DNA of 64,000 nucleotides, taken from positions 124,001-188,000 of the forward strand of contig JAVKOQ020000064.1 in the NCBI GenBank assembly GCA_031835245.2. The letters are read 5' to 3'. A program made the translations under genes and the position numbers. Under the pieces are notes generated by a model, which did no database searches, was not told the DNA's origin, and saw nothing but the letters and a program-made list of their open reading frames with translations. Each line of letters begins with the position of its first letter. Within the stretch, counting starts at the first letter, position 1. This DNA comes from Balamuthia mandrillaris. Its lineage: Eukaryota. This document shows, piece after piece, positions 26,301-52,158 of the stretch.

Positions 26301-27193
26301 CTTGTTCTTGTTCTTGTTCTTCTTCTTCTTGTTCTTCTTCTTGTTCTTCTTGTTCTTCTTCTTGTTCTTCTTCTTCTTCTTGTTCTTCTTCTTGTTCTTG
26401 TTCTTCTTGTTCTTCTTCTTCTTCTTCTTCTTCTTCTTCTTCTTGTTCTTCTTCTTGTTCTTCTTCTTCTTCTTCTTGTTCTTGTTCTTCTTGTTCTTCT
26501 TCTTCTTGTTCTTCTTGTTCTTCTTCTTGTTCTTCTTCTTCTTCTTCTTCTTCTTCTTCTTCTTTTTCTTCTTGTTCTTGTTCTTGTTCTTCTTGTTCTT
26601 CTTCTTCTTGTTCTTCTTGTTCTTCTTCTTGTTCTTCTTCTTCTTCTTCTTCTTCTTCTTCTTCTTCTTTTTCTTCTTGTTCTTGTTCTTGTTCTTCTTC
26701 TTCTTCTTCTTCTTCTCTATCTTCTTATGTTGTTTGTTTTCCACACGCCATATTAACGCCCCTTTCTTTCTTTCATGCTTCTTCTTCCTCTTCTTTTTCT
26801 TCTCGTTCTTCTTCAGGAAATGTCGTTATTAGTTCCGGTGGTGAAGATGATTCAGCTGGAGAGCGAAAAGTATCGCCAGTTCCTCCGTTTCCCGGAGCTC
26901 GTCAAAATCTTCGTGAACGTTTGCAACCAGTTCATCGACGCCGTCTCCGTCTACAAACAAAAAGGCAGCCCCAGCCCCTCCGACATGCTCAGCGGCCTTG
27001 CCGTCGTTTTGGATAAGGTTTCCGTTCCTTCCTTCTCGTTTCTTTCTTTCTTTCTTGTTAACAGCACAATAACAAACAGGATCCTGATTACATTCGCGCG
27101 TTGGACAAACGCACGGAGCTCATCAACCGGTTGAAGGACCTGTTGGGCGTGCTTCGCAAGATCCTCATCACCGAAAAGGGTCCTATCCTCTGA
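22401..27193 (+). CDS. LD-motif-rich scaffold with C-terminal helical bundles (multi-exon)
   Basis: MEYDELDSILASF, LDSFLSELE, IDSLLAEI, FENLLKELE, LDVLLESLD and VNSLLEGLD. The amphipathic helical C-terminus ends LRKILITEKGPIL* (TGA 27191-27193). Confidence 0.65.
26213..26720. repeat. Intronic (TTC/TTG)n compound microsatellite
   Basis: About 500 bp of ttc/ttg triplets inside GT-AG intron 26178-26816. Confidence 0.95.
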
Positions 27194-27277
27194 ACAAAAA
27201 AAAAGTTTTCTTCCTTTTCTTTCTTTTCTGAGTGCTGCTTGCCGCCAAAAGGGTTCTCCCCCATGAACCTCTTTTTT

Positions 27278-27805
27278 TGAATTCTTGGCAGAAGCTGAAC
27301 CACAGTGCAAGGCAGTGCTGCCAAGGGATTGTTATACACGATGCAGCGGGTGAGAGCGGTGAGCTGGGCGAACTCCCTCGGCAAGGAAGTCAGCTGGTTG
27401 TAGGAGAGGTCGCAGGTGGTAAGAGCGGAGAGCTGTCCAAACTCCCTTGGCAAGGAGCTCAGCTTGTTTACGGAGAGGTCGCAGTAGGTGAGAGCGGAGA
27501 GCTGGCCAAACTCCCTCGGCAAGCAGCTCAGCTGGTTGAAGGAGAGCTTGCAGTCAGTGAGAGCGGTGAGTTGGCCAAACTCTCTTGGCAAGGAGCTGAG
27601 CTGGTTGATGTAGAGGTTGCAGGTGGTAACAGCGGAGAGCTGGCCAAACTCCCTCGGCAAGGAGCTCAGCTTATTGTTGGAGAGGCTGCAGTGGGTGAGA
27701 GCGGAGAGCTGGGCAAACTCCCTCGGCAAGGAGCTCAGCTTATTCATGTAGAGCTTGCAGTCAGTGAGAGCGGAGAGCTGGCCGAAGGCGCTGGGCAAAT
27801 AGGTC
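27278..27805 (-). pseudogene. Inverted LRR-family fragment (6 internal repeats plus the start of the C-cap)
   Basis: YLPSAFGQ, six LSALTxCxLxxNxLSSLPREFGQ repeats, then NNPLAALPCTVVQLLPRIQ. It lacks the N-terminal leader and the BC-box/Zn tail. Confidence 0.85.
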
Positions 27806-27874
27806 TCCCACAATGAGCTGAGCTCCCTGCCGGGGGAGTTTGGCCAGCTCTCCGCTCTCTCCCGCTGCGACCTT
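27804..27874 (+). pseudogene. Single orphan LRR module fused back-to-back with the inverted fragment
   Basis: tctcccacaatgagctgagctccctgccgggggagtttggccagctctccgctctctcccgctgcgacc encodes SHNELSSLPGEFGQLSALSRCDL on the + strand. Confidence 0.85.
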
Positions 27875-28016
27875 AACATTCCTTTTTAAAAGCTACATGG
27901 TGTTGGTTGAAAAAAAAGTGGAAGAGCTCCTCACACGCTTTTCTGAGAGGGGAGGAGCAAAACGATAAAGAAAAGGAGACTGGTGGAGAAGTGATCCTTC
28001 AAAATAAAAAGGAGTA

Positions 28017-29889
28017 ATGGAGCCGCAACGAGCAGACAAGAGAGAGGAGGAGGAGGGAAGCAAAACCCTTCCCTCCCTGCTCCAACCCTTTGCACACTCC
28101 ACCGCCTGTGACCTCCGCTTCAAACGTTTGAGCGCCTTGCCCAGTGCCTTCGACCAGCTCACCGCTCTCACTTGCTGCGACCTCTCCTACAACAAGCTGA
28201 GCTCCTTGTCGAGGGAGTTTGGCCTGCTCTCCGCTCTCTCCCGCTGCGACCTCTCCCACAACAAGCTGAGCTCCTTGCCGGGGGAGTTTGGCCTGCTCAC
28301 CGCTCTCACTGATTGCAACCTCTCCAACAACTGCCTGACTTCCTTGCCACAAGAGTTTGGTCAGCTCTCCGCTCTCACCTCTTTCAACCTCTCCGACAAC
28401 AAGCTGAGCTCCTTGCCAAACAAGTTTGGCCAGCTCTCCGCTCTCACCCACTGCGACCTCGGCAACAACAAGCAGCTGACATCCTTGCCAAGGGAGTTTG
28501 GCCTGCTCTCCGCTCTTAGGGAGTGCTATCTCAACCACAACCACAAGCTGAACTCCTTGTCGAGGGAGTTTGGCCAGCTCTCCGCTCTCACCCACTGCGA
28601 CCTCTCCAGCCACTGGCTGACCGCCTTGCCAAGCGAGTTTGGCCAGCTCTCCGCTCTCACCCGCTGCGACCTGTCCTACGGCACTGGTCTAACATCCTTG
28701 CCAAGCGAGTTTGGCCAGCTCACCGCTCTCACCTCTCTCAACCTCTCCCACAACAAGCTGACCTCCTTGCCGAGAGAGTTTGGCCAGCTCTCCGCTCTCC
28801 CACTGCTACCTCGCCTTCAACTATCTACAATCCTTGCCAAGAGAGTTTGGCCAGCTCTCCACTCTTACCCACTGCGACTTCTGCCTCAACAAGCTTACTT
28901 CTTTGCCAAGAGAGTTTGGCCAGCTCTCCGCTCTTACCCACTGCGACCTCTCCTCCAACAAGCTGACTTCCTTGCCGAGGGAATTTGGCCTGCTCACCGC
29001 TCTCTCCCGCTGCTACCTCTCCCATAACAAGCTGACGTCCTTGCCGAGGGAGTTTGGCCAGCTCTCCGCTCTTACCACCTGCCACCTCTACAACAACAAG
29101 CTGACCTGCTTGCCAAGAGAGTTTGGCCAACTCTCCACTCTCACCCTCTGCCACCTCTCCTGGAACAAGCTGAGCTCCTTGCCGAGAGAGTTTGCCCGGC
29201 TGAGCATGCTCACCCGCTGCGACCTGGATGACAATCCCTTGGCAGCACTGCCTTGCACTGTGGTTCAGCTTCTGCCAAGAATTCAAACGCACTCCCCTCA
29301 ACCCTTTCAGCAGCAAGCAGCACTTCTCGCACAACCGCAAGGGAACAACAATAATGAGCAAGAGGAGCAAGCGAAGGAGGAGAAGGAGAAGAACAGAGCG
29401 ACGCCCTCCCAATCACCGTTCATGAGGAAGAACCAGGTCACAGTGAAGAGTTTGTGGCAGTTGAGCGGAGAGACAGTGCTGAGGAACCAGCTTTTGCCCA
29501 CTGGCCTGTTGACCCCTGTTCCAGCCTCTCCCTTCACTTGGCTTTCTTCTTCTTCTTCTTCTTCCCTGCCGGCGGAGAGGAGCACAAACCAGCTGCACGG
29601 AACAAAAGAACGCAATGAAGAAGGAGACAGAAGTGTGGAGAGTGCAGAAGTGGTGCTGCCAGAAGACGTGAGGGAAAGACTGGAAAGGCTTCAGCAAAGG
29701 TGTGATGTTTGTGAACAGCTGTTTTTGGAGGCAGAGGAGGAGGCAGAAGAGGAGGAGGAAGGAAGGGAAGGAAGGGAAGTGGTGAAAAGGTATTGGGATG
29801 AGGAAAGAAGAGTGTGGTGGGAGTTGTTGTGTTGCAGCCAGAACTGCCTCCTCCGACCCCTTCCTGCCTCTTCCCTTGCCATCAAGTAG
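28017..29889 (+). pseudogene. Variable LRR gene copy 1 (~15 internal repeats, BC-box-like + Zn tail), frameshifted at ~28798
   Basis: Overlapping ORFs 28017-29027 and 28780-29889. The sequence is gctctcccactgc where the usual form is gctctctcccactgc (2-nt loss), which may be an assembly error. Confidence 0.85.
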
Positions 29890-29911
29890 ACCTTTTTTTG
29901 CAAACAGGTTT

Positions 29912-29956
<45 letters not shown>

Positions 29957-30001
29957 CATTACATTCGCCATAAACCGACGGCATTCTCCTTACAAGAAGG
30001 G

Positions 30002-30172
30002 ATGGAGACCGTAGCCTCTGTGCCTTCAGACAGGAAGAAGGAGAAGGAAGAGGCGCTTGGCTTTCCTCCTCCGCCTCTTCTTCCACCGCCTGCGACCTCT
30101 CCTCCAATGGCTTGACCGCCTTGCCGAGGGAGTTTAGCCAGCTCACCGCTCTCAATGACTGCAAGCTCGCCT
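30002..30172 (+). pseudogene. 5' remnant of an LRR gene carrying a 25-bp micro-inversion
   Basis: METVASVPSDRKKEKEEA, then the inverted segment, then STACDLSSNGLTALPREFSQLTALNDCKLA. It closely matches the start of copy 3 (32733). Confidence 0.85.
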
Positions 30173-30244
30173 TTCTTTCTTTCATACTTCTTGTTCTTCT
30201 TCTTCTTCTTCTTCTTTCTTCTTTTCCTCCGCTTTCTTCTCCAT

Positions 30245-30643
30245 CTTCTTCAGGAAATGTCATTGTTAGTTCCGGTGGTGAAGATGATTCAGCTGGAGAG
30301 CGAAAAGTATCGCCAGTTCCTCCGTTTCCCGGAGCTCGTCACGATCTTCGTGAACGTTTGCAACCAGTTCATCGACGCCGTCTCCGTCTACAAACAAAAA
30401 GGCAGCCCCAGCCCCTCGGCCTTGCCGTCGTTTTGGATAAGGTATCCATCCTTCGTTTATTTCTTGTCGTTTCTTTCTTGTCGTTTCTTTCTTTCTTTCT
30501 TTCTTGTTAACAGCACAATAACAAATAGGATCCTGACTACATTCGTGCGTTGGGCAAACGCACGGAGCTCATCAACCAGGTTGAAGGACCTGTTGTGCGT
30601 GCTTCGCAAGATCCTCATCACCGAGAAGGGTCCTATCCTCTAA
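30245..30643 (+). pseudogene. Duplicated last two exons of the upstream LD-motif gene
   Basis: Near-identical to ~26807-27195, intron included, but with a 13-nt deletion (cgacatgctcagc). Confidence 0.9.
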
Positions 30644-30727
30644 ACAAAAATCAAAATAAAAAACCCTTTGTTTTGTGTGTTTGTGTTAATTGCTTACAGT
30701 CAAGCTCTCTCTTATTTCGAAGGAGAA

Positions 30728-32596
30728 ATGGCATCGCAACCGGCAGACAAGAAGGAGGAGGAGGAAGAGGAGGAAAGCCAAGCCCTGCCCGCCCTGCTCC
30801 AACCCTTTGCACACTCCACCGCCTGCGACCTCCACAACAACGAGCTGCGCTCCTTGCCGAGGGAGCTTGGCCAACTCTCCGCTCTCACTGCGTGCGACCT
30901 CTCCGACAACGAGCTGACCTCCTTGCCAGGGGAGTTGGGCCAGCTCTCCGCTCTCACTTATTGCGACCTCAGCAACAACAAGCTGACGCTCTTGCCGAGG
31001 GAGTTTGGCCAGCTCTCCGCTCTTACCTCCTGCGTTCTCTGCCATAATCAGCTAAGCTCCTTGCCGGGGGAGTTTGGCCAACTCTCCGCTCTCACTGATT
31101 GCGACCTCTCCAACAACAAGCTTATCTCCCTGCCGAGGGAGTTTGGCCAACTCTCCGCTCTCACCTACTGCGACCTCGCCTACAACCATCTAAAATCCTT
31201 GCCAAGAGAGTTTGGGCAGCTCACTGCTCTCACCCACTGCTACCTCTCCAAAAACGAGCTGTTCTACTTGCCGAGGGAGTTTGGCCTGCTCTCCGCTCTC
31301 ACGGAGTGCGACCTCTCCAAAAACTTGCTGAACTCCTTGCCGGGGGAGTTTGGCCAGCTCTCCGCTCTCACTGATAGCAACCTTTCCAAAAACTGGCTGT
31401 GCTCCTTGCCGAGGGAGTTTGGCCTGCTCTCCGCTCTCTCCCGCTGCGACCTCTCCCGCAACGGTCTGTTGTCCTTGCCGAGAGAATTTGGCCAGCTCAC
31501 CGCTCTCTCCCACTGCGACCTCTCCCACAACCAGCTTCCTTCTTTGCCACAAGGGTTTGGTCAGCTCTCCGCTCTTGCCTCTCTCAACCTGGCTTGCAAC
31601 AAGCTGACTTCCTTGCCAAGAGAATTTGGCCGGCTCTCCGCACTTACCACCTGTAGTCTCCACGATAATCAGTTGAGCTCCTTGCCGAGGGAGTTTGGCC
31701 AGCTCTCCGCTCTCTCCCGCTGCGACCTCTACTACAACAGGCTGAGCTCCTTGCCGAGGGAGTTTGGCCGGCTCTCCGCTCTCACTTACTGCAACCTCTC
31801 CATAAACAAGCTGTGCACCTTGCCGAGAGAGTTTGGACAGCTCTCCGCCCTCACTTACTGCAACCTCTACAACAACCAGCTGGCCTCCTTGCCGAGGGAA
31901 TTCGCCCGGCTGAGCATGCTCACCCTTTGCGACCTGGATGACAATCCCTTGGCAGCCCTGCCTTGCACTGTGGTTCAGCTTCTGCCAAGAATTCAAACGC
32001 ACTCCCCTCAACCCTTTCAGCAGCAAGCAGCACTTCTTGCACAACCACAAGGGAACGGTGATGAGCAAGAGGAGCAAGCGAAGGAGGAGAACAGAGTGAC
32101 GTTCTCCCGATCACCGTCCATGAGGAAGAACCAGGTCACAGTGAAGAGTTTGTGGCAGTTGAGCGGAGAGACAGTGCTGAGGAACCAGCTTTTGCCCACT
32201 GGTCTCTTGACCCCTGTTCCAGCCTCTCCCTTCATTTGGCTTTCTTCTTCTTCTTCCCTGCCGACGGAGGGGAGCACAAACCTGCAACACGGAACAAAAG
32301 AAGAACGTAAAGAAGAAACAGAGAAAGAACAAGAAGGGAGTATGGAGGTCATCATGGTGGTGCTGCCAGAAGACGTGAGGGAAAGCCTGGAAAGGCGTCA
32401 GCGAAGGTGTGATGTTTGTGAACACCTGTTTTTGGAGGCTGAAGCGGCGGAGGAGGAGGAAGCAGGAGGAGAAGGAAGGGAAAGGGCGGTGAGAAGGTGT
32501 TGGGACGAGGAAAGAAGAGTGTGGTGGGAGTTGTTGTGTTGCAGTCAGAGCTGCCTCCTCCGACCCCTTCCTGCCCCTTCCCTTGCCCCCAAGTAG
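30728..32596 (+). CDS. Variable LRR gene copy 2 (15 internal repeats, BC-box-like + Zn tail), intronless
   Basis: MASQPADKKEEE...FAHSTACDL, (LSALTxCxLxxNxLxSLPREFGQ)x15, DDNPLAALPC, VKSLWQLSGETVLRN, LPEDVRESL...CDVC...WWELLCCSQSC. Confidence 0.93.
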   Translation: MASQPADKKEEEEEEESQALPALLQPFAHSTACDLHNNELRSLPRELGQLSALTACDLSDNELTSLPGELGQLSALTYCDLSNNKLTLLPREFGQLSALTSCVLCHNQLSSLPGEFGQLSALTDCDLSNNKLISLPREFGQLSALTYCDLAYNHLKSLPREFGQLTALTHCYLSKNELFYLPREFGLLSALTECDLSKNLLNSLPGEFGQLSALTDSNLSKNWLCSLPREFGLLSALSRCDLSRNGLLSLPREFGQLTALSHCDLSHNQLPSLPQGFGQLSALASLNLACNKLTSLPREFGRLSALTTCSLHDNQLSSLPREFGQLSALSRCDLYYNRLSSLPREFGRLSALTYCNLSINKLCTLPREFGQLSALTYCNLYNNQLASLPREFARLSMLTLCDLDDNPLAALPCTVVQLLPRIQTHSPQPFQQQAALLAQPQGNGDEQEEQAKEENRVTFSRSPSMRKNQVTVKSLWQLSGETVLRNQLLPTGLLTPVPASPFIWLSSSSSLPTEGSTNLQHGTKEERKEETEKEQEGSMEVIMVVLPEDVRESLERRQRRCDVCEHLFLEAEAAEEEEAGGEGRERAVRRCWDEERRVWWELLCCSQSCLLRPLPAPSLAPK

Positions 32597-32732
32597 ACCA
32601 ATAGATCCTATTTTTCCGCCTTTTGATTTTTGGTTGGTGGTTTGAAAGTTTTTTCAAAGATCGCTGTTTGCCTTCTCTTGTAAGGTCGACACGATGCATT
32701 TTTTTTCTTTTGTTCCACAGGCCAAGAAGGGA

Positions 32733-34406
32733 ATGGAGACCGCAGCCTCTGTGCCTTCGGACAAGAAGAAGGAGGAGGAGGAAGAGGCGGAGGAGGAAAG
32801 CCAAGCCCTGCCCTCCCTGCTTCAACCCTTTGCACACTCCACCGCCTGCGACCTCTCCTCCAATGGTTTGAGCTCCTTGCCGAGAGAATTTGGTCGGCTC
32901 ACCGCTCTCACCCGCTGCGACCTCAACGGCAACGAGCTGAGCTGCTTGCCGAGGGAGTTTGGCCAGCTCACCGCTCTCACCGAGTGCTTCCTCCACAACA
33001 ACAAGCTGGCCTCCTTGCCGAGTGAGTTTGGCCTGCTCTCCGCTCTCACAAAGTGCTACCTCGCCAGCAATGATCTAAAATCCTTGCCTTCCGAGTTTGG
33101 CCAGCTCGTCACTCTCAAATATTGCAACCTCCCAAACAACAAGCTGAGGTCCTTGCCACAAGAGTTTGGTCAGCTCTCCGCTCTCGCCTCCCTCAACCTC
33201 TGCAGCAACCAGCTGAGGTCCTTGCCGAGGGAGTTTGGCCGGCTCTCCGCTCTCTCCCACTGCTACCTCTCCAGCAACGAGCTGTTATCCTTGCCGAGAG
33301 AGTTTGGCCAGCTCTCCGCTCTCTCCCACTGCGACCTCTCCAACAACCAGCTTCCTTCTTTGCCACAAGAGTTTGGCCAGCTCTCCGCTCTTATCTCTCT
33401 CAACCTGGCCGGCAACAAGCTGAGCTCCTTGCCAAGAGAATTTGGCCAGCTCTCCGCACTTACCTCCTGCAGTCTCCGCAATAACCAGTTGACTTCCTTG
33501 CCAAGAGAATTTGGCCAGCTCTCCGCTCTCTCCCACTGCAACCTCTCCCATAACGAGCTGAGGTCCTTGCCGCGGGAGTTTGGCCAGCTCTCCGCTCTCA
33601 CTTACTGCTACCTCTCCCACAATAAGCTGAGCTCCTTGCCGCGGGAGTTTGGTCAGCTCTCCGCTCTCACCTCCTGCGACCTCTCCAACAACAAGCTGAG
33701 CTACTTGCCGAGGGAGTTCGCCCAGCTGAGCATGCTCACCCTTTGCGACCTGGATGACAATCCCTTGGCAGCACTGCCTTGCACTGTGGTTCGGTTACTT
33801 CCAGGTATTCAAACGCACTCCCCTCAACCCTTTCAGCAGCAAGCAGCACTTCTCGCACAACCGCAAGGGAACAACGACGATGAGCAAGAGGAGCAAGCAA
33901 AGGAGAAGAACAGAGTGCAATCACCATCCATGAGGAAGAACCAGGTCACAATGAAGAGTTTGTGGCAGTTGAGCGGAGAGGCGGTGCTGAGGAACCAGCT
34001 TTTGCCCACAGGTCTCTTGACCCCTGTTCCAGCCTCGCCCTTCACTTGGCTTTCTTCTTCTTCTCTGCCAGCGGAGGGGAGCACAAACCTGCAGCACGGA
34101 ACAAAAGAAGAACGTAAAGAAGAAAAAGAGAAAGAACACGCAGAAGCAGAAGAAGGGAATATGGAGGTCATCATGGTGGTGCCAGAAGAAGTGAAGGAAA
34201 GACTGGAAAGGTTGCAGAGAAGATGTGACCTTTGTGAACAGCTGTTTTTAGCAGCAGAAGAGGAGGAAGAAGGAGAAGGAAGGGAAGGAATGGCAGTAAT
34301 GCGAAGGTATTGGGATGAGGAAAGAGGAGTGTGGTGGGAGTTGTTGTGTTGCAGTCAGAGCTGCTTCCTCCGGCCCCTTCCTGCCTCTTCCCTTGCCACC
34401 AACTAG
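32733..34406 (+). CDS. Variable LRR gene copy 3 (12 internal repeats, BC-box-like + Zn tail), intronless
   Basis: Same leader, repeat consensus and tail (MKSLWQLSGEAVLRN...CDLC...CCSQSC) as copy 2. Confidence 0.93.
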   Translation: METAASVPSDKKKEEEEEAEEESQALPSLLQPFAHSTACDLSSNGLSSLPREFGRLTALTRCDLNGNELSCLPREFGQLTALTECFLHNNKLASLPSEFGLLSALTKCYLASNDLKSLPSEFGQLVTLKYCNLPNNKLRSLPQEFGQLSALASLNLCSNQLRSLPREFGRLSALSHCYLSSNELLSLPREFGQLSALSHCDLSNNQLPSLPQEFGQLSALISLNLAGNKLSSLPREFGQLSALTSCSLRNNQLTSLPREFGQLSALSHCNLSHNELRSLPREFGQLSALTYCYLSHNKLSSLPREFGQLSALTSCDLSNNKLSYLPREFAQLSMLTLCDLDDNPLAALPCTVVRLLPGIQTHSPQPFQQQAALLAQPQGNNDDEQEEQAKEKNRVQSPSMRKNQVTMKSLWQLSGEAVLRNQLLPTGLLTPVPASPFTWLSSSSLPAEGSTNLQHGTKEERKEEKEKEHAEAEEGNMEVIMVVPEEVKERLERLQRRCDLCEQLFLAAEEEEEGEGREGMAVMRRYWDEERGVWWELLCCSQSCFLRPLPASSLATN

Positions 34407-34910
34407 TTCTCGCAAATAGGTTTCCTAGTATCGCTCTCTTCCTCTCTAGTTCTCGCAAACACAACACAAAAGAAGAACCAGACACGAAAGAAACGACAAG
34501 AACTGAAACAGACCAGAACTCAATTGCTCTCAGAGTGGAATACTTTATTGTGCAAAACACAAACATATAATACAAAAAAAAAAATAACAAACAAGCATTA
34601 CACCAAAGAACCAACTCTGGTTTCCGGCTCGAACGTTCCAGTGTTTTGCTCTTTAGCGCCAGTATGCGAAGAGTGGTCCGAGACGACGAGGATCGGTCAC
34701 TCTTCCGTGGATCTCACCTCACAATTGCGATGCTGCCCTCTGTCGACGCGTCGGTTACGTCAATTAGGCGAACCATTTCTCCGTTATAGGTGGGGTGACC
34801 TCCCCATCAACAATACGTACCACACCTTCCAATCTTTCTGCTTTCTTGGTCTCCGTTCGTGTCTTTATTTTCTCCCTGTTTGCTGTTACTTACTCTCCTA
34901 CAAACCGAAC

Positions 34911-36412
34911 ATGCAAGACACCAACGCCACTATCGTTGCCCCGGCTTCCTCGATGGACTATCTTAGTCTGGGCGAGTGGAGCTGGGAGTTGGACTTCGCG
35001 CGGACGGACTGGACGCTCCTGTGGGAGCCGGACCGTTGGCGGTGGGAGGTCAATGTGACGCCTTTGTCGCAGCCAGCACTGCCGTTTTATGCGGTGTTGC
35101 TATACTTGCTTTCTCTTGTTGCTCTCAAGGTAGTTTTTTCTTTGCTTTCTCACTTTGTCGCTTCTATCTTTCTTCTTGTCGTTTCTTTCTTTCTTTCTTT
35201 CGTTCTTTCTTGTTGTTGCCTTCTTTTTGGAACGGCACTAACAACCAACAACAAAGAGTTTCATGGCCAACCGCAAAGCGTATGACTTGAAGTACGTCTC
35301 TGCCTTTCACAACCTCTTTCTGTGCGCCTGGTCTTTGGTCATGGCCTTGGGAACCATATACTATGCCGCCATTCGTGCTTGGGTATTTTGTTTTCTCTCT
35401 TTGTCTCTGCGTCCATGAACTCGTCGATGCTCCTGCTTCCATTCTTTCTCTCTTTGCTCTCGCTATCATTAAGCAAAATATCTTGTCGTTTAAACAGAGC
35501 AACAGAGAGACCAATCCATGGCAACTAGTCTGTGAGACGGAGCCGAACAGTTTTCAAGGCCCGATCTATTACTTTGGCTACCTCTACTACATCTCCAAAT
35601 ACTACGAGCTCCTCGACTCCGTCATCATCCTTTTGAAAAAGGTTTGTCATGAGAGGTTCTGTCTTCTGTGTTCAGTCTCTTTCTTAGCTCACGGTTTTCC
35701 TGTAAACACAAAACAGAAACCGCTTATTTTCTTGCACGTGTATCACCATGCTGGGATGGTCGTCTTGTGTCGACTGTGGATGCAATCCGGGCACCCCATT
35801 GGATTGTGAGTTCTCATCCTCTTCAATCTTTCCTTCTTTATAACGGAGAAGAAGCGAAGCAGCTGCTTCTTTACTCCCTTTCTCTCTTTTCTCACCTTCC
35901 TCGTCGTATGACAGCTGGACAGTTATCGCCAACAGCTTGATTCACGTGTGGATGTATTACTTCTACTTTCTTGCTGCCTTGGGGCAAAACGTGTGGTGGA
36001 AGGTATCGCCGTCTTCCTTCAGCTTCTCTTATTGCCTCTCTGATCCTCTGTTTCCGCTTCTATCTTACGTCCCGCTCTGCCATTCTCTTTTCAATGCAAA
36101 ACCAAACAGAAATACTTAACAATAGGACAAATGATTCAATTCGCAGGGCTCTTCTGTGTTTGCCTCTTACACTTCACCAAGAGCTTCGGTCAGAACTTTG
36201 CCCTCCAACCGGCAGCCGACAACGCGTTCTTGCCTTTTGCTTTCACCTACGAAAAAGGATGCGTCGGGGATGAGTTCGCCATGTTCATATGCGTCTTCTT
36301 TGACGCCTCGCTCTTCCTTTTGTTCAACCAGTTTTTCCAAAGAAGCTACACCCACCGAGAGGCCGACACGAATCCCTCGTCACCCACCGCAGAGTGTAAA
36401 AAGAACCGCTAA
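34911..36412 (+). CDS. ELO: Fatty acid elongase (GNS1/SUR4/ELOVL), multi-exon
   Basis: HNLFL, YYISKYYELLDSVIILLKK, FLHVYHH histidine box, NSLIHVWMYYFY, WWKKYLT..QMIQF. Confidence 0.95.
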
Positions 36413-37114
36413 TGAACAAAGCGGTGACGAATGAGCGCGTAGGCGAATTGCTTTTTATGTTTTCAAAAGGAATAACATGAGGAGAGTGAAGAAAGTAGAA
36501 GGTTCATTCGAAGAGCATAGCGCGACCAGGTGTGCTCCCTTGGAGCGTCGACTACCGAACATACCGAGGTTGCGTTTTTCCTTTCGCCGGTTTGACGGCT
36601 TCAAACCTCTTCGATCGCAAGGCTAATTTCATGCGGACAACCCTTAAAAAGGGCACGCGAGACGCGTAAAGGTGACGGAAGATACGGCGAATAGGACCGT
36701 TTCGATATGGTCAAATGGTAATTTGTGATATGATCTGTGCAACACGTTCAATCTCCGTCGTAGAGATCGTTTTGCTGCACTCCAATTGGATGAGAAAGGG
36801 AGAATGCATCGGGTGATTGGTGGAGATGCATCATTCGAATTCGCTTTTTAAAGAAAAGTTGGTGACTCCGGCGCAACGTGCAATGCCTTTGAGTTTGTTT
36901 CCATGTTAGGTCCGCTGGGGAGCAAGGCTATTCCGCCCTTTTCAACTCCCCGGTCGGCATCATGTTTTCCGCTTCTCCTGCAAGCAAACATTCCAGATCG
37001 TTCACTCGCTTTTAGCTTTGTGTTTTCATTCGCAGCTGCGGCAGAGTGTTTGTTGGTTTTTTTTTTTTTGAGTTTAGTTGCAAGAGTCTAAAACAAAACA
37101 CAGCATGCAAGGAA

Positions 37115-38429
37115 ATGACAGTGTTGACGGAGGTGCTCCTTTCAGTTCGCTATGGCAACCAGTTACCCTCTTTCTTATCAATTGTTCTATATCATTCATC
37201 TTTCTCTTTCCATTATTCTCTCTGTCTCTCTCTCCTCTCCTCTCCTCTTTTCTCCTCTCCTCTCCTCTCCTCTCCTCTCCTCTCCTCTCCTCTCCTCTCC
37301 TCTCCTCTCCTCTCTCTCCTCTCTCTCCTCTCTCTCCTCTCTCTCCTCTCCTCTCCTCTCCTCTCCTCTCCTCTCCTCTCCTCCTCCTCTCCTCTCCTCT
37401 CCTCTCCTCTCCTCTCCTCTCCTCTCCTCTCCTCTCCTCTCCTCTCCTCTCCTCTCCCTCTCCTCTCCTCTCCCTCTCCTCTCCTCTCCTCTCCTCTCCT
37501 CTCCTCTCCTCTCCTCTCCTCTCCTCTCCTCTCTTTCCCGTTCTGATTCACCGTCCCCCTTTATTAAAGGTCATCAACAGTTGTGACTATTTGAGAACAG
37601 TAGCCCACAAAGCTTCCACGTCCGGTCTGCCGCTGGACCGGGAGGACATGGTGCAGGCCCAGATGGCCGCTCTCTACCTTCGTCATGCTCTCCTGCAACT
37701 TGCTTCTTCTCATAACAATCCCCAAGCTTCAGCAATGTCTTATCTAAGGGGTAGTTATTCTCGTCCCCCTTCTTCTTCATCCTCCTCTTGTGTTTTATCT
37801 TCTTCTCCTGCGCGTGCTACGGCTACCCAATCTACAGGAGGGTCAACACAAAAAATGGTTGCAGAAAGCCCATCAACCGAAGAAGAAAAAGAGGAGGGAG
37901 AAGACACCGAAGTTATTGAGGCAGAAAACATAAGCCCCTGGAATTGTTTCCACAAAAAGGACCATGAGAACATACAAACAGCAAAACAAACAAAAGCAAG
38001 CAATGCAAACGATAAAACTTCAAAGGCGCTTTCAGTGATGACAACCTTTCGACCGTACCAATGTGCTTGGTGTCACGAGGTATCGACCCCTGAATGGCGG
38101 AAAGGACCAAAGAAAGAAAGGTATTTGTTGTTCATTTGTCTGGTAACGTTGGTTTTTGACTCTCTCCATTTTTTGCCGCTGTTTTTTTGTCTTTGCAAAA
38201 AAGGTTGTGCAACAGATGCGGACTGAAATGGAGGCGAGTGGTGAAACGACAACAGAGAAAGCAACGATGCAGACTGAGAGAAAGCACAATAAAACAAACA
38301 AGAACAGCCCCTCCATCACGGCTGAAGGAACAAGAGGAGGGACAGAAACAAGAAGTGGAAGAAGAAGGCAAGGAGCGAGAATGGGCCGCCATTCGAAGCA
38401 AAAGCAGCATCCGAGCCATTTTGAATTGA
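37115..38429 (+). CDS. GATA zinc-finger transcription factor, 3 exons
   Basis: CAWCHEVSTPEWRKGPKKER|LCNRCGLKW (Cx2Cx17Cx2C). Confidence 0.88.
37225..37535. repeat. Intronic (CTCTC)n microsatellite
   Basis: About 300 bp of pure pyrimidine pentamer repeat in the first GATA intron. Confidence 0.95.
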
Positions 38430-38815
38430 TGCAAAAAAAAAAAAAATAGAATGTTCAATTTTTGTTACAAAATATTTCAAAAGTTCGAAAATAGTTCAAA
38501 ATTATTGATTTTTCCCACTTCCATTGCAATTTTTCTGGCCTCAAGGGCTTGGAAGCGGGAAAAATCAATAATTTTGAATTATTTTCGAAGCCTGTTAATC
38601 GACAGAACGCTTGCCTCACTACCCACATAACGAGGAAACGAACACAACAACACGAAACCACGAAACCACCGCAAGGACCAACAACAACAACAACCTTTTA
38701 TACCAGTATTATCTTTTAAAAGTTTCAGACTACAACGCACACTTTTCCCATATACCTCTTTTACTCTGCCAACAAAGCTTTGAGGTTTTTTCGACCCATA
38801 TTTTTTTCGTTTGGA

Positions 38816-40975
38816 ATGGAGCCACTGGCAGGCAAGGAAGAGGAGGCGGAGGAGGAAAGCCAAGCCCTGCCCGCCCTGCTCCAACCCTTTGCACACTCCA
38901 CCGCCTGCGACCTCTCCTGCAAGGGTTTGACCTTTTTGCCGAGGGAGTTTGGCCAGCTCAAAGCTCTCACCCATTGCGACCTCGTCTGCAACGAGCTGAC
39001 CTCCTTGCCGAGGGAGTTTGGCCAGCTCTCCGCCCTCACCGAGTGCGACCTCTGCAGCAACCACCTTACGTCCTTGCCGAGGGAGTTTGGCCAGCTCAAA
39101 GCTCTCACTAAGTGCATCCTCACCGGGAACAAGCTGAGCCCTTTGCCGAAGGAGTTTGGCCAGCTCTCCGCTCTCGCTGAGTGCCACCTCTCCAGCAACA
39201 AGCTGAGCTCCTTGCCGAGGGAGTTTGGCCAGCTCTCCGCTCTCACTGACTGCGACCTCCACAACAATAAGCTGAGCTGCTTGCCGAGGGAGTTTGGACA
39301 ACTCTCCGCTCTCATCCGCTGCGACCTCTCCCACAACAAGCTGAGGTCCTTGCCGAGGGAGTTTGGCCAACTCTCCGCTCTCTCCAGCTGCAGCCTCTCC
39401 GACAACAAGCTGAGCTCCTTGCCGAGGGAGTTTGGCCTGCTCTCTGCTCTCACCCACTGCGACCTCTACGACAACGAGCTGAGGTCCTTGCCGAGGGAGT
39501 TTGGCCGACTCACCGCTCTCGCCCACTGCGATCTCTACAGCAACAAGCTGAGGTCCTTGCCGCAAGAGTTTGGCCATCTCTCCGCTCTCACTAAGTGCAT
39601 CCTCTACGACAACAAGCTGAGCTGCTTGCCGAGGGAGTTTGGCCAGCTCACCGCTCTCACAAACTGCAACCTCTCCCACAACAAGCTGAGGTCCTTGCCG
39701 AGGGAGTTTGGCCAGCTCTCCGCTCTCACTCAGTGCAACTTCTACAACAACAAGCTGAGGTCCTTGCCGAGGAAGTTTGGCCAGCTCTCTGCTCTCTCCC
39801 GCTGCGACCTCGCAATCAACGAGCTGAGGTCCTTGCCGAGGGAGTTTGGCCTGCTCACCGCTCTCACCCAGTGCGACCTCTCCCACAACAAGCTGGGCTC
39901 CTTGCCGAGGGAGTTTGGCCGACTCACCGCTCTCACCTACTGCGATCTCTACAGCAACCAGCTGACCACCTTGCCGAGGGAGTTTGGCCAGCTCTCCGCT
40001 CTCACCCAGTGCGACCTCTCCCACAACAAGCTGACGTCCTTGCCGAGGGAGTTTGGCCAGCTCTCCGCTCTCACCTACTGCAAGCTCTCCTACAACCAGC
40101 TGAGGTACTTGCCGAGGGAGTTTGGCCTGCTCTCCGCTCTCACCTACTGCTACCTCTCCAACAACGAGCTGAGGTCCTTGCCGAGGGAGTTTGGCCAGCT
40201 CTCCGCTCTTACCCACTGCTACCTCTCCAACAACGAGCTGACCTGCTTGCCGGGGGAGTTTGGTCAGCTCAAAGCTCTCATCCACTACAGCCTGGAGGAG
40301 AACCCCTTGGCAGCACTGCCTTGCTCCATGGTTCGTCTTCTTCCAAAAATGTGCACGCACCGTCCTCCACCGTTTCTCCAGCAAGAAGCACTTCTCGAAC
40401 AAACGGAAGAGAATTACAAAGAGCAAGAGGAAGAGAAGAAGGAGAAGCAAAAGAAAAGAGCGAAGCCCAACCAGTCACCGTCCATGAGGAACAGGCACGC
40501 CACTGTGAAAAGCTTGTGGCACTTGAGCGGGGAGGTGGCGCTGAGGAACAGGTTGTCTGCTGGTCTGTTGAGTTCTGTTCCGGACCTTCCCTTCACTTGG
40601 CTTGTTTCTTCTGGTTTTTCTCTTCCTTCTCCTGCTTCTTCGTTTGCTTCTCTACGGAATGCAGACCAAGAAACGAGAGGAACAAAGGAAGAACAACTAA
40701 AAGAGGAAGAAATCGTGGAAGGTGCAGAAGTGGTGCTGCCAGAAGAAGTGAAGGACAAATTGGAAAGGTTGCAGAGAAGGTGTGATGTTTGTGAGTGTCT
40801 TTTCTTAGAAGCAGAAGCGGAGGAGGAGGAAGAAGAAGGAGACGGAGGAGGGGAAGGAAGGGAAGTGGTGAGAAGGTATTGGGACGAGGAAAGAGGAGTG
40901 TGGTGGGAGTTGTTGTGTTGCAGCCAGCGCTGCTTCCTCCGGCCCCTTGCTGGACGTTCTATTGCCATAAAGTAG
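38816..40975 (+). CDS. Variable LRR gene copy 4 (19 internal repeats, BC-box-like + Zn tail), intronless
   Basis: MEPLAGKEEE...HSTACDL, 19 repeats, EENPLAALPC, VKSLWHLSGEVALRN, LPEEVKDKL...CDVC...CCSQRC. Confidence 0.93.
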   Translation: MEPLAGKEEEAEEESQALPALLQPFAHSTACDLSCKGLTFLPREFGQLKALTHCDLVCNELTSLPREFGQLSALTECDLCSNHLTSLPREFGQLKALTKCILTGNKLSPLPKEFGQLSALAECHLSSNKLSSLPREFGQLSALTDCDLHNNKLSCLPREFGQLSALIRCDLSHNKLRSLPREFGQLSALSSCSLSDNKLSSLPREFGLLSALTHCDLYDNELRSLPREFGRLTALAHCDLYSNKLRSLPQEFGHLSALTKCILYDNKLSCLPREFGQLTALTNCNLSHNKLRSLPREFGQLSALTQCNFYNNKLRSLPRKFGQLSALSRCDLAINELRSLPREFGLLTALTQCDLSHNKLGSLPREFGRLTALTYCDLYSNQLTTLPREFGQLSALTQCDLSHNKLTSLPREFGQLSALTYCKLSYNQLRYLPREFGLLSALTYCYLSNNELRSLPREFGQLSALTHCYLSNNELTCLPGEFGQLKALIHYSLEENPLAALPCSMVRLLPKMCTHRPPPFLQQEALLEQTEENYKEQEEEKKEKQKKRAKPNQSPSMRNRHATVKSLWHLSGEVALRNRLSAGLLSSVPDLPFTWLVSSGFSLPSPASSFASLRNADQETRGTKEEQLKEEEIVEGAEVVLPEEVKDKLERLQRRCDVCECLFLEAEAEEEEEEGDGGGEGREVVRRYWDEERGVWWELLCCSQRCFLRPLAGRSIAIK

Positions 40976-45064: not shown

Positions 45065-46588
45065 ATGGAAGGGTCCTCTCCTCTTCCTTCGTCCACAGCG
45101 GTCACGCCCAGCGCTGCCACCGCCCAGCAAAGCAGCGGCCATGGGGAGGATGAGAAGAACTCTTGCGGTTGGCCGGTGGAAGAGCTCCTGCCTGCAGAAA
45201 TGCTGTGCCATATCTTGCGCGCACTCCCGAAGGAGAGTGTGGCCCCGGCCTCGAGGACCTGCCGCCGGTGGTATGCTTGCAGCCCTCCAGGCATCAGACA
45301 TAAGCTGTGCATGCGGTGGGCCTGCTCCTCCTTGGCTGCCTTGCAGTGGGTCCGCCTTGATCAGGACTGCCCTCTATCGGCCAACACTTGCGCCTTGGCT
45401 GCTGCGCAGGGCCAGCTGCAAGTGTTGCAATGGGCAAGGGAGCACGGATTCCCTTGGGACGAGAGCACTTGCCACGCGGCCGCAGAGAACGGCCAGCTGG
45501 AAGTGCTGCAATGGGCAAGAGAGAATGGAGCCCCGTGGGACGAAACGACTTGCACCAACGCTGCTGCGGGTGGCCATTTGGAGGTGCTTCAGTGGGCAAG
45601 AGCGAACGGCTGCCGTTGGGACGAAGATACCTGCACACTAGCTGCCTTCAACGGACATCTGAAGGTGCTGAAATGGGCAAGAAAGAACAGGTGTCCCTGG
45701 GACGCACTCACCTGCGCCTACGCTGCCGAGGGAGGCCACTTGGAAGTGTTGCAATGGGCGAGAGCAAATGGCTGCCCTTGGAATGCGGACACTTGTGCTC
45801 AGGCCGCTTGGGGCGGACACGTGGGGGTATTGCTATGGGCCAGGGCAAACGGCTGTCCTTGGGGCGAGTGGACCTGCGCCTTCGCTGCTGAACGTGGCCA
45901 TTTGTGGTTGCTGAAATGGGCGAGGGAGCAAGGCTGCCCTTGGGGCGAGCAATATTCTGACCGGCAGAAAGAGGCGTTCGCCAGGGGAATGGAAAACGGA
46001 TGTCTTTGGAGCGAGCGCTTCCTCGACGTCGACATAGACCTTGACCTCTTGCACCGGTACCCGCTGAAGGTTCTCCAAACGTACTGCACGGATGAGGAGC
46101 TTGCGGTGCGAGGCCAATTCAAAAAAAGGCACTTCATCAGGGCCATTTTGAAGTACAACGGCATCTCTGATGCATCGGAGGAGGAAGAACCAGGAGAAGA
46201 AGAAGAAGAAGAAAGGGACGAAGAAGGAGGTGAGGATGAATATGAATACGAATATGAAGATACAGATGAAGATGAAGATGAGGATGAGAAGGAAGATGCA
46301 GATGATGAAGCTGAAGATGAAGATGAAATGAGAAGGAAGATGAGGAAGCTGGAGATGGAGATGATGAAGCTGAAGCTGAAGATGAAAATGAGAAGGAAGA
46401 TGAGGATGAATATGAAGAGGCGGAAGAGGAAGTAGACTTTTATAATGTCCCCTGGTTGGAAGCTGGTACCAGTGAAGTTGTTACGAGAATACTGCCTCAC
46501 GGAACGACTCTCGGTGCCCACAAACGCCACAAGAGCTGACTTGATCCAAGCCATCCGAGGCAGCCGGAGACAGCAAAGACAGCAATGA
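45065..46588 (+). CDS. F-box + giant-virus-type ankyrin repeats + acidic tract and SAP/HeH-like motifs; intronless; ORF stop at 46435 with a disrupted 3' end
   Basis: F-box LPAEMLCHILRAL...SRTCRRW. About 6-7 repeats of WDExTCxxAAxxGHLEVLQWARxNGCP. The D/E tract shifts frame at ~46326. Confidence 0.8.
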
Positions 46589-48473: not shown

Positions 48474-51400
48474 TGGAACGTCCCACCCCACAACGCTGCA
48501 AAGTCCCACCACCCTCGGTAAACGTCCCCACCCTCAGGTAATTTACCCACCCTAATATGTATTTACAATAACCCATTATTTTGTGCTATTTGCCACCAAA
48601 GCGTGTACAATATTATTTAGAGAGGCGGAGAAAAGGATCAGAAAAACCCGGCACTATTTCTTTTGTGCTTTTTTTTCGTTTTGTTCTTTTGGCCAGTCTT
48701 TTCTTTGTCACGCTGGGCACCTTTTCTTCGTTCTGTTCTTTTTTTGAGGAGAGAGGAGCTTCACGACCTGTGTTTTCTGGTACCGTGGGTTGGGCTTCAG
48801 TTGTCGTTTTGGAGAGAGAGGCTTCCTTTTGTCCACTCGGGGATCCTGGTAGTTCACCACGGGTGCGACGCCATAGATCTCTTCCGTTTTACAGTTCTTT
48901 TGCCATTGAGAGGTACGCTTTGCTTTGCACTCTTCAAAAATGACAAACATCAACTTCAGAAAAAGAATCTGCTTGATACAAAAAGTGACAAACATACCAC
49001 TTTGCGTTTTTGTTTTTTGATTTTGTTGTTTTTTTGGTGCAGCCGCCGCCACCGCCGCTGCCTTTTTCTTTGTTGTTTCAGGTTTTGTTAATTTTGATTG
49101 AAAGGTACGTTCGGTTTCTGGTGTTTGTGTGAGGTGTTAGCTAAAAGTAGGAAAGGAGGGAGAGATTTTGTTTAAAAAAAAGAGATACTAACTTAATTCA
49201 AGCAAACATTCTTCTGTGAGTCGCAGGTTGGTTGCTACTTTCGGCCGCTTTGTTGTATTGCGCGGCCTCCCAGGTGATGACTTCCCTGTAGCATATGCGA
49301 TTGCTTGTTCTGCTTCTTCCTTGCTAGAGTACTCGATTTTTGGCTCCACTGGATGTTGATGCTTTGTTCCTTGATTTTTGTTTGCATTCAGTTTGTCTTT
49401 CTCCTTTTCCTTCTCCTCCTCCTTCTCCTCCTTCTCCTCCTTCTCTTCTTTCTTATTGTTGTGTTCTTCTCCTTCAGAAGTTTCTTCCTCAAGATCTCCG
49501 CCGTCGTCCTCACCAAGTTCATCCATCGATGGCTCCTCCAACAGTAGCAGCGCCTGCTGTTCCTCGGCCTGTTCATCTCCCTCCTCTCCTTCCACATCTT
49601 CATCATCAAGGGTAACAGGCGCTACACGTTGCTCCAGGGAGTCAGTATCATCTGCTTCAACGATGTCATCTTCAACTATTCTTGCCACTTGTGAGGTGCT
49701 GCTGTTGGTGCGTCTTGTTTGTCTTTTCAGCCCAAGCTCTAAAAGGTTCTGATCTGAAAATGTTTTCTGTAGATGAGCAGCAAGTCCAAAAACGTGTTTG
49801 CACCTCCTACCATAATACCGAAAGTAAGGACAGGGGCATGAAGGCAATTCTATAGTCACGTCGTACTCATTCCATTTGAAAACGCCGTCAGCAAGCTCTA
49901 CAAAATGTGCGTTCAATCCTTCTTCTACCTCTTTTTCCTCTCTGTCGTTGTTGTTGTCATCGTTTTTGCTGCCATTCTCTATTTCTTCTTTTTCTTTCTG
50001 TTTCTCACTCTGTTGGTGCTGTGCCAGCCGCAATCCCTCTTGATATCTCCTCCAAAGCCGGCAAACACCAAGGCTTGGGCGTTGCGGTAGTACATCGATG
50101 CGGTTGAGCTCCACATTGTAGCGGCGAAACACATTGTCTGCTAGCGTTAAGACCAAGTTGTGATCCCCTTTGGTGCCTTTGCAGTGGAAATCACGAAGAA
50201 TGCTACGAAAGATCGTCTCTGTTGCATTGTTGGTATTCCACAAGCCCTCTCGGTACCCAGGACGATCAATGCTTTTCCACGTTGATGCCCATGGAGGAGA
50301 AAGCCAGTTCTTGTCAAAGTACTGCCAAAAACGGGTAATCCTCTTTTTTTGGCAATAGTTCTTCAACACTTTTGTTGCTTCTTCCTCTGCATCTTCTGTC
50401 ATGGCATGTTGCAGTCTTTTTAACAAACCCAATACACTTCCATCATCCTTCCCTTGTTGTTTGGTATTATTGTTAGTTTCTACTTGTATGAGCAACAACG
50501 AGAGGGAGAGAGCAGATGCATGAAAGAGAGAGAACAAACCATACTGCGCAACTTTTTTTCTCCACAGTTGTTGTGCATGAAAGTCACACAACCCCACCTG
50601 AAAGCCAGCACTTGTCGCCCCGTTACGCTCCACCTTGTCTTTGTCGATCATTACGAAGGGTTGCCACGTAGGTTTTGGGGAGTAGATCGTTGTCGTCTGT
50701 GTCTCAAAAAAGTGACGAACAGACGAAAGGAAAAAGCGCACAACTGCTGCTCGTTCCTTGCTAGCAACAGCGAAGGCAACAGGCCAGCTCCGTCCCAAGT
50801 CATCTTGCACCACCAGTGCCCAAACGGGGGGATGTGACTTGGATAGCTTGTAGATGCTGTCCAGGCCGACTACATCCTTACCCCATCGCTGAAGCACAGT
50901 GACTGCATAAGGCGCGATCAGAAAAATCATCCATGGCCGACGGGCCGCCGTGCGATCAAGGATGTACGTTTCACGGCTCTCCAAAGGTGGGAAAAGGATA
51001 GTAGAAGCCAGTTCTGGCCGATTCAAGGCCTCTTGGAGGGCTTCTGCTCTGGTTTGCCCTTTCTTGCCGATTCGCAGTTTTTTCCTTCCGTTGTGGATTA
51101 CAGTGGCAATCTCCTGCACAGTGGGTACATCCCGAGCATCCTTGCCCAGCTCACAAGCGCCCCCCAGCAACATTCGTTGCAGCTCGTGCGCCGTCATTGC
51201 TCCTCCTCTCCCATTCATTCCGTCTTCTTTTGTTCCTTGCCCATCCATCTGGCGGAGCCACTGCCGAAGCGCAGGTGTCATAGGCAAAGCGGAAGGCGCG
51301 CAAACCCCAGGTCCGTGGCTTTGGGCTTCCTTCTGGATGTAGATGTAGGCAGTGTTTAGCTCATCTCTAAACACCACCCAACGGCTTTGTACTTCACAGT

Positions 51401-52158
51401 CCTTTAGTTTTTTGTTCTTCTTTCCTCTTGCAGGAGGAGCACAGGCAAAGCCGCCAGAGCAGTGAAGATTCTCGCTGAGTGCAACCTCAAGGACCCCATT
51501 CTTCACCTTCTTGACTTTAGGCGCCACCAACACTTTCACTCCTTCAAGGGTGGGCCGCGGATTACTAAGCACCTTCACTCCTGTTCGCTTTGTAAGCCCA
51601 CGAGTTGATCTCCATTGGACTCGATAAAAGGTCGGAGCATCCTCTCCACCATTGTACAACCGTGAAAGCTGCTGCAATGGAACCTTTCGTTCAAAAATCC
51701 ACCCGTAAATCTCGGCAAATCTTTTTTTCTTCGCTTCCATAATGAGAAAAAAAAAAAGGAAAAAACAAAAAGCCAAACAAACAAAAAAGGTGTGGGATGG
51801 TTGTGTGTAGCTGTTTCTAGTTGAAAGAAAAAAGTTAAAGAAGAAGACCTTGTTACAACCCAAGAAAAAGTAACGGTAACGTTATTGAAAAAAAAAGGCG
51901 GGAACAAAAAGAAAAGTATGGCGGGCAAGAATGGTGAGAGGAATACCCGTTGACCAAGGATACAGCATGCTTTCAATTCCTGACAGTTTCTTTTACAACG
52001 GTTATTCCTCTCGCCAAGCAAAGAGAAACACAGTAGCAATGTAACGATAGAGTTACTCATAATTCATGTCACCCTAATAGGTTGGGACTTTTACCTGAGG
52101 GGTGGAATTTTTATCGGTGGGGTGGGAAGTTTATGGTCGTGGGGTGGGATATCTACCA
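48474..52158 (-). mobile_element. Mutator-like (MULE) DNA transposon with imperfect ~85-bp TIRs
   Basis: The left end tcccaccccac...tcccacc...ccctcaggtaa matches the reverse complement of the right end ttacctgagggg...ggtggga...gtggggtggga. It encloses a MULE transposase. No clean TSD was found. Confidence 0.8.
49188..51740 (-). CDS. MULE DDE transposase with SWIM zinc finger
   Basis: D1 VGLDSIYK...DDLGRSWPVAF, D2 VMIDKD, CDFH (CxxH), E in TNNATE, SWIM CPCPYFRYYGRRCKH. A probable in-frame intron lies at ~50455-50540. The C-terminus has an AT-hook-like PGRPR. Confidence 0.88.
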   Translation of the reverse strand: MEAKKKRFAEIYGWIFERKVPLQQLSRLYNGGEDAPTFYRVQWRSTRGLTKRTGVKVLSNPRPTLEGVKVLVAPKVKKVKNGVLEVALSENLHCSGGFACAPPARGKKNKKLKDCEVQSRWVVFRDELNTAYIYIQKEAQSHGPGVCAPSALPMTPALRQWLRQMDGQGTKEDGMNGRGGAMTAHELQRMLLGGACELGKDARDVPTVQEIATVIHNGRKKLRIGKKGQTRAEALQEALNRPELASTILFPPLESRETYILDRTAARRPWMIFLIAPYAVTVLQRWGKDVVGLDSIYKLSKSHPPVWALVVQDDLGRSWPVAFAVASKERAAVVRFFLSSVRHFFETQTTTIYSPKPTWQPFVMIDKDKVERNGATSAGFQVGLCDFHAQQLWRKKVAQYGLFSLFHASALSLSLLLIQVETNNNTKQQGKDDGSVLGLLKRLQHAMTEDAEEEATKVLKNYCQKKRITRFWQYFDKNWLSPPWASTWKSIDRPGYREGLWNTNNATETIFRSILRDFHCKGTKGDHNLVLTLADNVFRRYNVELNRIDVLPQRPSLGVCRLWRRYQEGLRLAQHQQSEKQKEKEEIENGSKNDDNNNDREEKEVEEGLNAHFVELADGVFKWNEYDVTIELPSCPCPYFRYYGRRCKHVFGLAAHLQKTFSDQNLLELGLKRQTRRTNSSTSQVARIVEDDIVEADDTDSLEQRVAPVTLDDEDVEGEEGDEQAEEQQALLLLEEPSMDELGEDDGGDLEEETSEGEEHNNKKEEKEEKEEKEEEKEKEKDKLNANKNQGTKHQHPVEPKIEYSSKEEAEQAIAYATGKSSPGRPRNTTKRPKVATNLRLTEECLLELS

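Follow-up and report, generated by a model that had tools for sequence, protein, structure and literature searches.

Many intracellular bacteria and giant viruses have amoebae as their natural hosts, and how the amoebae recognize intruders within the cell is largely open; a gene cluster of Balamuthia mandrillaris raises the question of what its highly repetitive proteins bind and to what end. The cluster lies in a window of 64,000 nucleotides (contig JAVKOQ020000064.1, positions 124,001–188,000; all positions below are those of this whole stretch) and comprises three intact intronless leucine-rich repeat (LRR) genes encoding 557–719 amino acids, one frameshifted paralog, one inverted fragment and two stubs. 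We lean towards the view that these genes encode a diversifying set of LRR proteins that dock on Elongin BC-cullin, each choosing its own target for ubiquitylation, with foreign or rapidly changing proteins as the likely targets. In this respect the cluster combines two known kinds of system, namely a concertedly evolving repeat repertoire and a ligase adaptor layout.

The repeats form four tandem arrays of a 69-bp module on the forward strand, at 28154–29201 (15.1 copies), 30823–31899 (15.6 copies), 32869–33727 (12.4 copies) and 38936–40286 (19.6 copies), together with an inverted array of 6.4 copies at 27342–27783. A first-pass annotation of the window had described four full-length, intronless paralogs with 12–19 modules each between a shared leader and a shared C-terminal tail. 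The leader and the tail are both present as described, and three genes (B, C and D) are single uninterrupted open frames, whereas the adjacent ELO gene can be read as open across five GT-AG introns. The count of four holds for these three; it fails for the gene starting at 28017 (gene A), which is broken by a frame shift in a 67-bp module near 28800.

Where the modules differ was examined across 69 anchored modules in five arrays, 62 of which are regular and were analyzed; the seven left out are the three 72-bp modules and the 67-bp module of gene A, the capping modules of gene D and of the inverted fragment (R), and R's first module, which the boundary of the analyzed region truncates. No two of the 62 are alike in DNA, in protein or in the combination of residues at the variable (x) sites. 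Per-codon entropy singles out six of the 23 codons (14, 16, 18, 19, 21 and 23, at 2.1–3.3 bits, with the next highest at 1.27), as the earlier estimate of about six hypervariable codons had anticipated. They correspond to positions 3, 5, 7, 8, 10 and 12 in the LxxLxLxxNxL register, the first five of which we take to line the concave face and ascending loop of the LRR, with position 12 on the flank. Single x positions keep a dominant residue (S in 36, K in 31 and D in 28 of the 62 modules); it is the combination that is unique, and the Asn ladder is intact, with N20 present in 61 of the 62.

Counting tests point to positive selection at these six codons. Over all module pairs, the ratio of nonsynonymous to synonymous differences (pN/pS) reaches 1.34 for x sites and 0.32 for the framework; along the 61 edges of a minimum spanning tree it is 1.70 (235 nonsynonymous and 29 synonymous changes; binomial p=0.003) against 0.37. 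The x-site value stays at 1.65–2.77 for transition/transversion weights of 1–4 and holds separately in gene D and in the other genes, giving across methods 1.3–2.8 for x codons and 0.3–0.5 for the framework. The proposed diversification at the ligand face is therefore borne out. The accompanying claim of a framework almost invariant even at synonymous sites is not, since framework pS is 0.24 and the 37-mer quoted in its support occurs exactly in only four of the 62 modules, with two mismatches as the mode. Synonymous change on the tree edges is similar at x sites (0.152) and in the framework (0.136), and x-site change shows no adenine bias (A 0.30, C 0.29, G 0.35); selection explains this pattern better than targeted mutation.

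These counting tests ignore recombination and the non-independence of pairs, and the within-gene all-pairs ratios of genes A, B and C are only 1.05–1.15, both of which tell against the selective account. Ratios so near 1 would suit a near-neutral turnover in which amplification homogenizes the framework while unconstrained x sites drift in a decaying family, as would the state of the cluster (one of four genes frameshifted, with three further fragments) and the similar internal identity (0.70–0.75) of bacterial LRR proteins. Such drift nevertheless appears improbable, given that x-site pN is 1.9–2.5 times framework pS (3.3–4.1 times in gene D), three frames of 557–719 codons have stayed open, and the Asn ladder is preserved.

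The repeat modules evolve in concert within and between genes. The tail of gene D differs from those of A, B and C with a pS of 0.37–0.43, whereas its module frameworks differ from theirs by only 0.21–0.27 and among themselves by 0.15; a tail more diverged than the frameworks it adjoins indicates homogenization. Repeat identity within a gene is only 41% in the diverged paralog P0053, compared with 61–69% in the window genes, which suggests that homogenization marks the window subfamily. Among the six gene pairs, only B and C share a colinear block (B10–12 with C7–9; 0 of 2000 permutations), while A and B, despite having the closest tails (pS 0.14), share no significant one (122 of 2000 permutations). 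The frequency of four-gamete configurations is nearly flat with distance inside the 69-bp unit (0.50–0.74) and is uninformative. Contigs from other samples, not necessarily other strains, are short and none spans an array: those of a second sample match modules of B and C exactly over 167 and 176 nt, and one of a third sample agrees with the beginning of A apart from one difference in 130. Samples X8 and X9 have no coverage of several modules of A at 97%, which carries no weight as evidence. No two modules are exact duplicates, and the longest exact common tract is 48 nt; taken with the exact second-sample matches, this argues for slow inherited turnover rather than somatic assembly. Of the module shuffling proposed in the first-pass annotation, a slow germline exchange thus survives, seen in the B/C block and in the homogenization of D, whereas shuffling of the lamprey kind does not. 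The source of the diversity would be unequal crossing-over together with conversion of short tracts, both acting on the inherited genome.

The variable lymphocyte receptors (VLRs) of lampreys and hagfish likewise vary at the concave x positions of their LRRs; they are secreted or glycosylphosphatidylinositol (GPI)-anchored and are assembled somatically from cassettes. The window genes resemble them in the variation at x positions; unlike VLRs, they have no signal peptide or GPI-type hydrophobic segment and stand as complete genes in the genomic sequence. Programmed somatic diversification, by VLR-like cassette assembly or by mutagenesis of the kind directed by diversity-generating retroelements, could in principle build such arrays within clones, with promoterless fragments such as R serving as donors, and x codons are often NAC or NAG. 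Retroelement targets, however, show adenine-specific variation from a template repeat, which the x sites lack, and the absence of identical modules, the short common tracts and the second-sample matches render somatic construction very improbable.

What binding by such a face would lead to is suggested by the tail, which after the LRR cap runs through SLW(Q/H)LSGExx, (L/V)PE(D/E)VxxxL, a CxxC pair, an acidic insert, a tryptophan-rich hairpin and CCSQxC. The consensus BC box is (S,T,P)LxxxC/S/AxxxPhi, with Ser allowed, and the Cul2 box is PhiPxxPhixxxPhi (PMC4878042); a strict BC box is found in three of the four window genes (A, B and C), and a Cul2 box follows downstream in all four. Human LRRC58, a substrate receptor of the cullin-RING ligases CRL2/CRL5 (CUL2/CUL5) for CDO1 (PDB 9T7V; PMC13156300, PMC12589099, 10.1101/2025.09.23.678073), carries LRRs, a BC box and a CUL2 box along with a zinc loop and a two-stranded sheet (PMC13156300). 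Like LRRC58 and its look-alikes LRRC28 and LRRC69, the window genes have N-terminal LRRs followed by a BC box, a Cul2 box, a cysteine cluster and, close to the C-terminus, a predicted hairpin of two strands. Judged by its motifs, the tail is laid out in the LRRC58 order of BC box, Cul2 box and four-cysteine site, and it would bind Elongin BC and cullin as well as zinc. The layout pattern was written after inspection of the tail; shuffling of three tails produced both boxes in order at a rate of 0.4–0.6%, and none of 20000 shuffles gave the full layout including four cysteines.

Conservation points in the same direction. The canonical BC-box cysteine occurs in diverged relatives, which also retain the frame (RLFWLCADVV in P0129 and P0053, tail E=2e-14; SLVWQCASKL in P0124), both boxes and the cysteines are kept down to 29% tail identity, and the tails are under purifying selection (pN/pS 0.37–0.61). 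Two low-confidence models, of the gene C protein and of P0129, show the Cul2-box region as helical and the stretch between the cysteine pairs as strands, and that of P0129 also has the BC box in a helix. An ESM Atlas feature search with residues 400–622 of gene B returned LRRC28 (0.91/0.90), LRRC69 (0.88) and LRRC58 (0.87). The earlier reading of these proteins as receptors thus holds in that they are cytosolic, diversified binders, and misses their likely output, as the tail is arranged like that of a cullin-RING ligase adaptor. Each protein would hold its target by the LRR face, while the tail would recruit Elongin BC-CUL2/5 and bring about ubiquitylation and degradation of the target, a division of labor that we regard as probable from the sequence features described. 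By this layout the proteins may be placed with LRRC58 as a type that works alike, a family link not being established.

The likeness to LRRC58 has clear bounds. In LRRC58 there are nine LRRs, and the metabolic substrate is conserved, whereas the window family is multi-copy, with 12–20 homogenized repeats under positive selection; the boxes of the window family are 59–64 residues apart, its tails lack the cysteine-sensing C-terminus of LRRC58 (DFC 317–319 and the terminal VLLG), and no sequence-level link was obtained. An alternative is that these are diversified cytosolic binders whose tail is a structural or signaling zinc module with a decayed ligase handle, sensing or sequestering ligands without ubiquitylation. 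The long low-complexity insert between the boxes, the replacement of Cys by Ser in the cluster genes, and the lack of a hidden Markov model or fold link to LRRC58 would fit this alternative. It is nonetheless unlikely in our judgment, since Ser is permitted in the BC-box consensus, the boxes and cysteines persist in distant relatives, the tails are under purifying selection, and no NOD, kinase or TIR domain was found in a Pfam search of the cluster proteins.

Several observations weigh against the ligase-adaptor proposal as a whole. The last BC-box position of gene D is Ala, P0001, P0053 and P0129 break the first-residue rule of the box, and a BC box alone appears in 12–15% of shuffled tails. 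The conserved Cul2 box of genes A–C, 59–64 residues past the BC box, lies outside the canonical spacing of 8–23 residues (PMC3355856); a second, less conserved match to the Cul2 box sits 5 residues past the BC box. The Atlas query took in the last LRR and the cap, its scores are near the level that shuffled proteins reach in 4–10 of 100 cases, and no usable match came from a query restricted to the P0053 tail. A profile of nine tails searched against 1.84 billion proteins yielded 12 matches, nine of them named B. mandrillaris and none LRRC58, LRRC28 or LRRC69, and the tail of the modeled relative reaches a predicted local distance difference test (pLDDT) score of only 26–57. At the level of RNA, the B and C arrays are covered to a depth of about 0–1 per strand. 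Most reads show fixed differences and fall on an A-like tail together with the duplicate next to it, so their source may be another allele or paralog. Finally, no ligand or infection data were found.

Some member of the family is likely transcribed: RNA run X15 (about 3% of the run) gave 182 reads on the family, 112 of them at a match of at least 99%, and run X17 gave 24, with none on the ELO neighbor. Nine X15 RNA reads at 29014 join the A-like 3' part to unrelated upstream sequence, and the form chiefly transcribed in that sample appears to be a rearranged or truncated copy.

The family itself seems lineage-specific. The nearest relatives of the cluster genes are B. mandrillaris proteins, and the named proteins with this tail, 11 records, are all from this species; P0124, an ENA fragment, is a more distant relative, while the weak matches P0125 and P0127 look spurious. 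The summed contig depth of the leader (850 and 1818, against 22–38 and 35–66 for most single listed contigs) hints at tens of family copies in the genome, though the depth figure is not a copy number. In the cluster proteins, only LRR families exceed the Pfam cut-off, with no NACHT or NB-ARC domain in that search, and the tail gave nothing significant against PDB sequences or Pfam. Maximum 19-residue hydropathy is 0.92–1.14, leaving no hydrophobic, transmembrane segment, as expected from the earlier description of a cytosolic protein. A single-sequence fold of the gene C protein was poor (pLDDT 51.6), whereas an alignment-based model of P0129 is a regular LRR solenoid, nearest to Leptospira LRR proteins and SHOC2 (4u06: Z 29.7, root-mean-square deviation 2.3, 279 aligned); its Foldseek/VIA matches are LRR solenoids over residues 19–319, with LRRC58 not among the matches listed. 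A viral origin of the intronless genes was considered and set aside, as no relative appeared in scans of viral or metagenome contigs, which need close words and would miss an old viral ancestry. No description of the family was found in the literature searched, subscription papers being outside its reach, and "LRR" and "cullin" are absent from the main text of the Balamuthia genome and transcriptome papers PMC10471605 and PMC8569187.

Which targets such adaptors would select can be approached through systems that evolve in a similar way. Podospora HNWD/het-d/het-e and other fungal NOD-like receptors (NLRs) with high internal conservation likewise show concerted repeats in which a few interface codons diversify (PMC1805685, PMC4986451), although their WD40, ANK or TPR repeats sit on NACHT or NB-ARC cell-death receptors, whereas the window genes have LRRs and no NOD domain, and the internal identity of the window repeats (79% in nucleotides, 61–69% in amino acids) is below the fungal threshold of 85%. 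The ROCO LRR genes of the brown alga Ectocarpus are similar in that their LRR arrays are cytosolic, evolve by birth and death with turnover of modules, and are under diversifying selection, a defense role having been proposed; they have one exon per repeat followed by a Roc-COR domain, in contrast to the intronless window genes without a GTPase (PMC3341825). The expanded F-box and MATH-BTB adaptors of nematodes and plants parallel the window family in lineage-specific expansion and proposed foreign targets, and the nematode Skp1-cullin-F-box (SCF) ligase with cul-6 acts against microsporidia and virus (PMC4063957). Those adaptors belong to the SCF and CUL3 types rather than the Elongin BC type of the window genes, and no report of diversity generated from homogenized tandem repeats in these families was found in the literature searched.

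In the window family, targets would come from intracellular bacteria or giant viruses, and a role in antimicrobial defense is inferred; that the targets are foreign has, in our estimate, a little under an even chance. The same adaptors might instead diversify through endogenous conflict or regulation, involving selfish elements, self/non-self recognition among amoebae, or turnover of host proteins. LRRC58, the sole characterized relative by layout, has a host metabolic substrate, and fungal repeats under this evolutionary regime control allorecognition (PMC1805685); lineage-restricted expansion, pseudogenes and positive selection, on the other hand, fit a conflict between host and parasite of the kind suggested for the F-box adaptors of nematodes (PMC4063957). 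We consider the endogenous account rather unlikely, while nothing in the analysis separates it from the antimicrobial one. The fullest version of the proposal, a cell-autonomous immune repertoire of a free-living amoeba on an LRRC58-type scaffold, in which the LRR faces of tens of Elongin BC-cullin adaptors would be continually recast through repeat exchange and selection, and the adaptors would ubiquitylate proteins from intracellular bacteria or giant viruses for destruction, is put forward as tentative and, taken whole, doubtful.

The arrangement of the cluster records part of its growth. On the reverse strand, fragment R (27276–27800) has seven modules and a cap without a start or leader, its tail ending after LLPRIQ; it stands back to back with a single-module stub on the forward strand (27824–27885), and a DNA contig of sample X2 spans the junction (27742–27857) without mismatch. 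All other elements of the cluster are on the forward strand. Gene A (28017–29889) has the leader, 15 anchored modules and a full tail, with the BC-box motif SLWQLSGETV at 29449–29478 and the Cul2-box motif, CxxC, predicted hairpin and CCSQxC within 29656–29847. It is frameshifted as assembled; among the contigs listed, none bridges the shift, and no insertion row is present there. Its three 72-bp modules (28422–28780) have one extra codon beside the Asn ladder, which is a further mode of diversification. A 5' stub at 30002–30170, 83% identical to the start of gene C and broken after one module, is followed at 30212–30650 by a copy of the upstream gene's last two exons (original at 26772–27200; exons 98% and 95% identical, with indels); this exon copy beside a C-like stub indicates that the cluster grew at least partly by segmental duplication at the DNA level.

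Gene B (30728–32596; 622 amino acids, 15 anchored modules) has its BC box at 32147–32176, Cul2 box at 32363–32389, CxxC at 32408–32419 and CCSQSC at 32537–32554; the corresponding sites of gene C (32733–34406; 557 amino acids, 12 anchored modules) are at 33957–33986, 34179–34205, 34224–34235 and 34347–34364. Gene D (38816–40975; 719 amino acids, 20 anchored modules) has a BC-box-like motif at 40511–40540, the Cul2 box at 40736–40762, CxxC from 40781 and CCSQRC at 40916–40933. Between C and D lie the ELO (fatty-acid elongase) gene (34911–36412) and a GATA-finger-like gene (37078–38226), both on the forward strand, and an inverted repeat of about 105 bp with 78% identity (38484–38589) lies about 230 bp upstream of D. 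Elsewhere in the window, a second intronless repeat-bearing ligase adaptor on the forward strand (45068–46435) joins an F-box to 81-bp ankyrin repeats that are more diverged (about 68% matches), a gene type also found in giant viruses, and a further F-box gene is present at 55557–56672 on the same strand. On the reverse strand, a long open reading frame (49188–51881) with weak MULE transposase and SWIM matches may be a DNA transposon near the cluster, and a 51-bp repeat lies at 779–955 in an open frame rich in CxxC-like units; the tested frame had no Pfam match.

The family, which amounts to a natural library of 23-residue LRR modules that are nearly identical and sit on a predicted ligase handle, is of interest for the design of binders and degraders. 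For the biology of Balamuthia, it would couple a generation of diversity resembling that of fungal NLRs to a likely degradation output, on a scaffold whose one characterized member is a conserved metabolic regulator.

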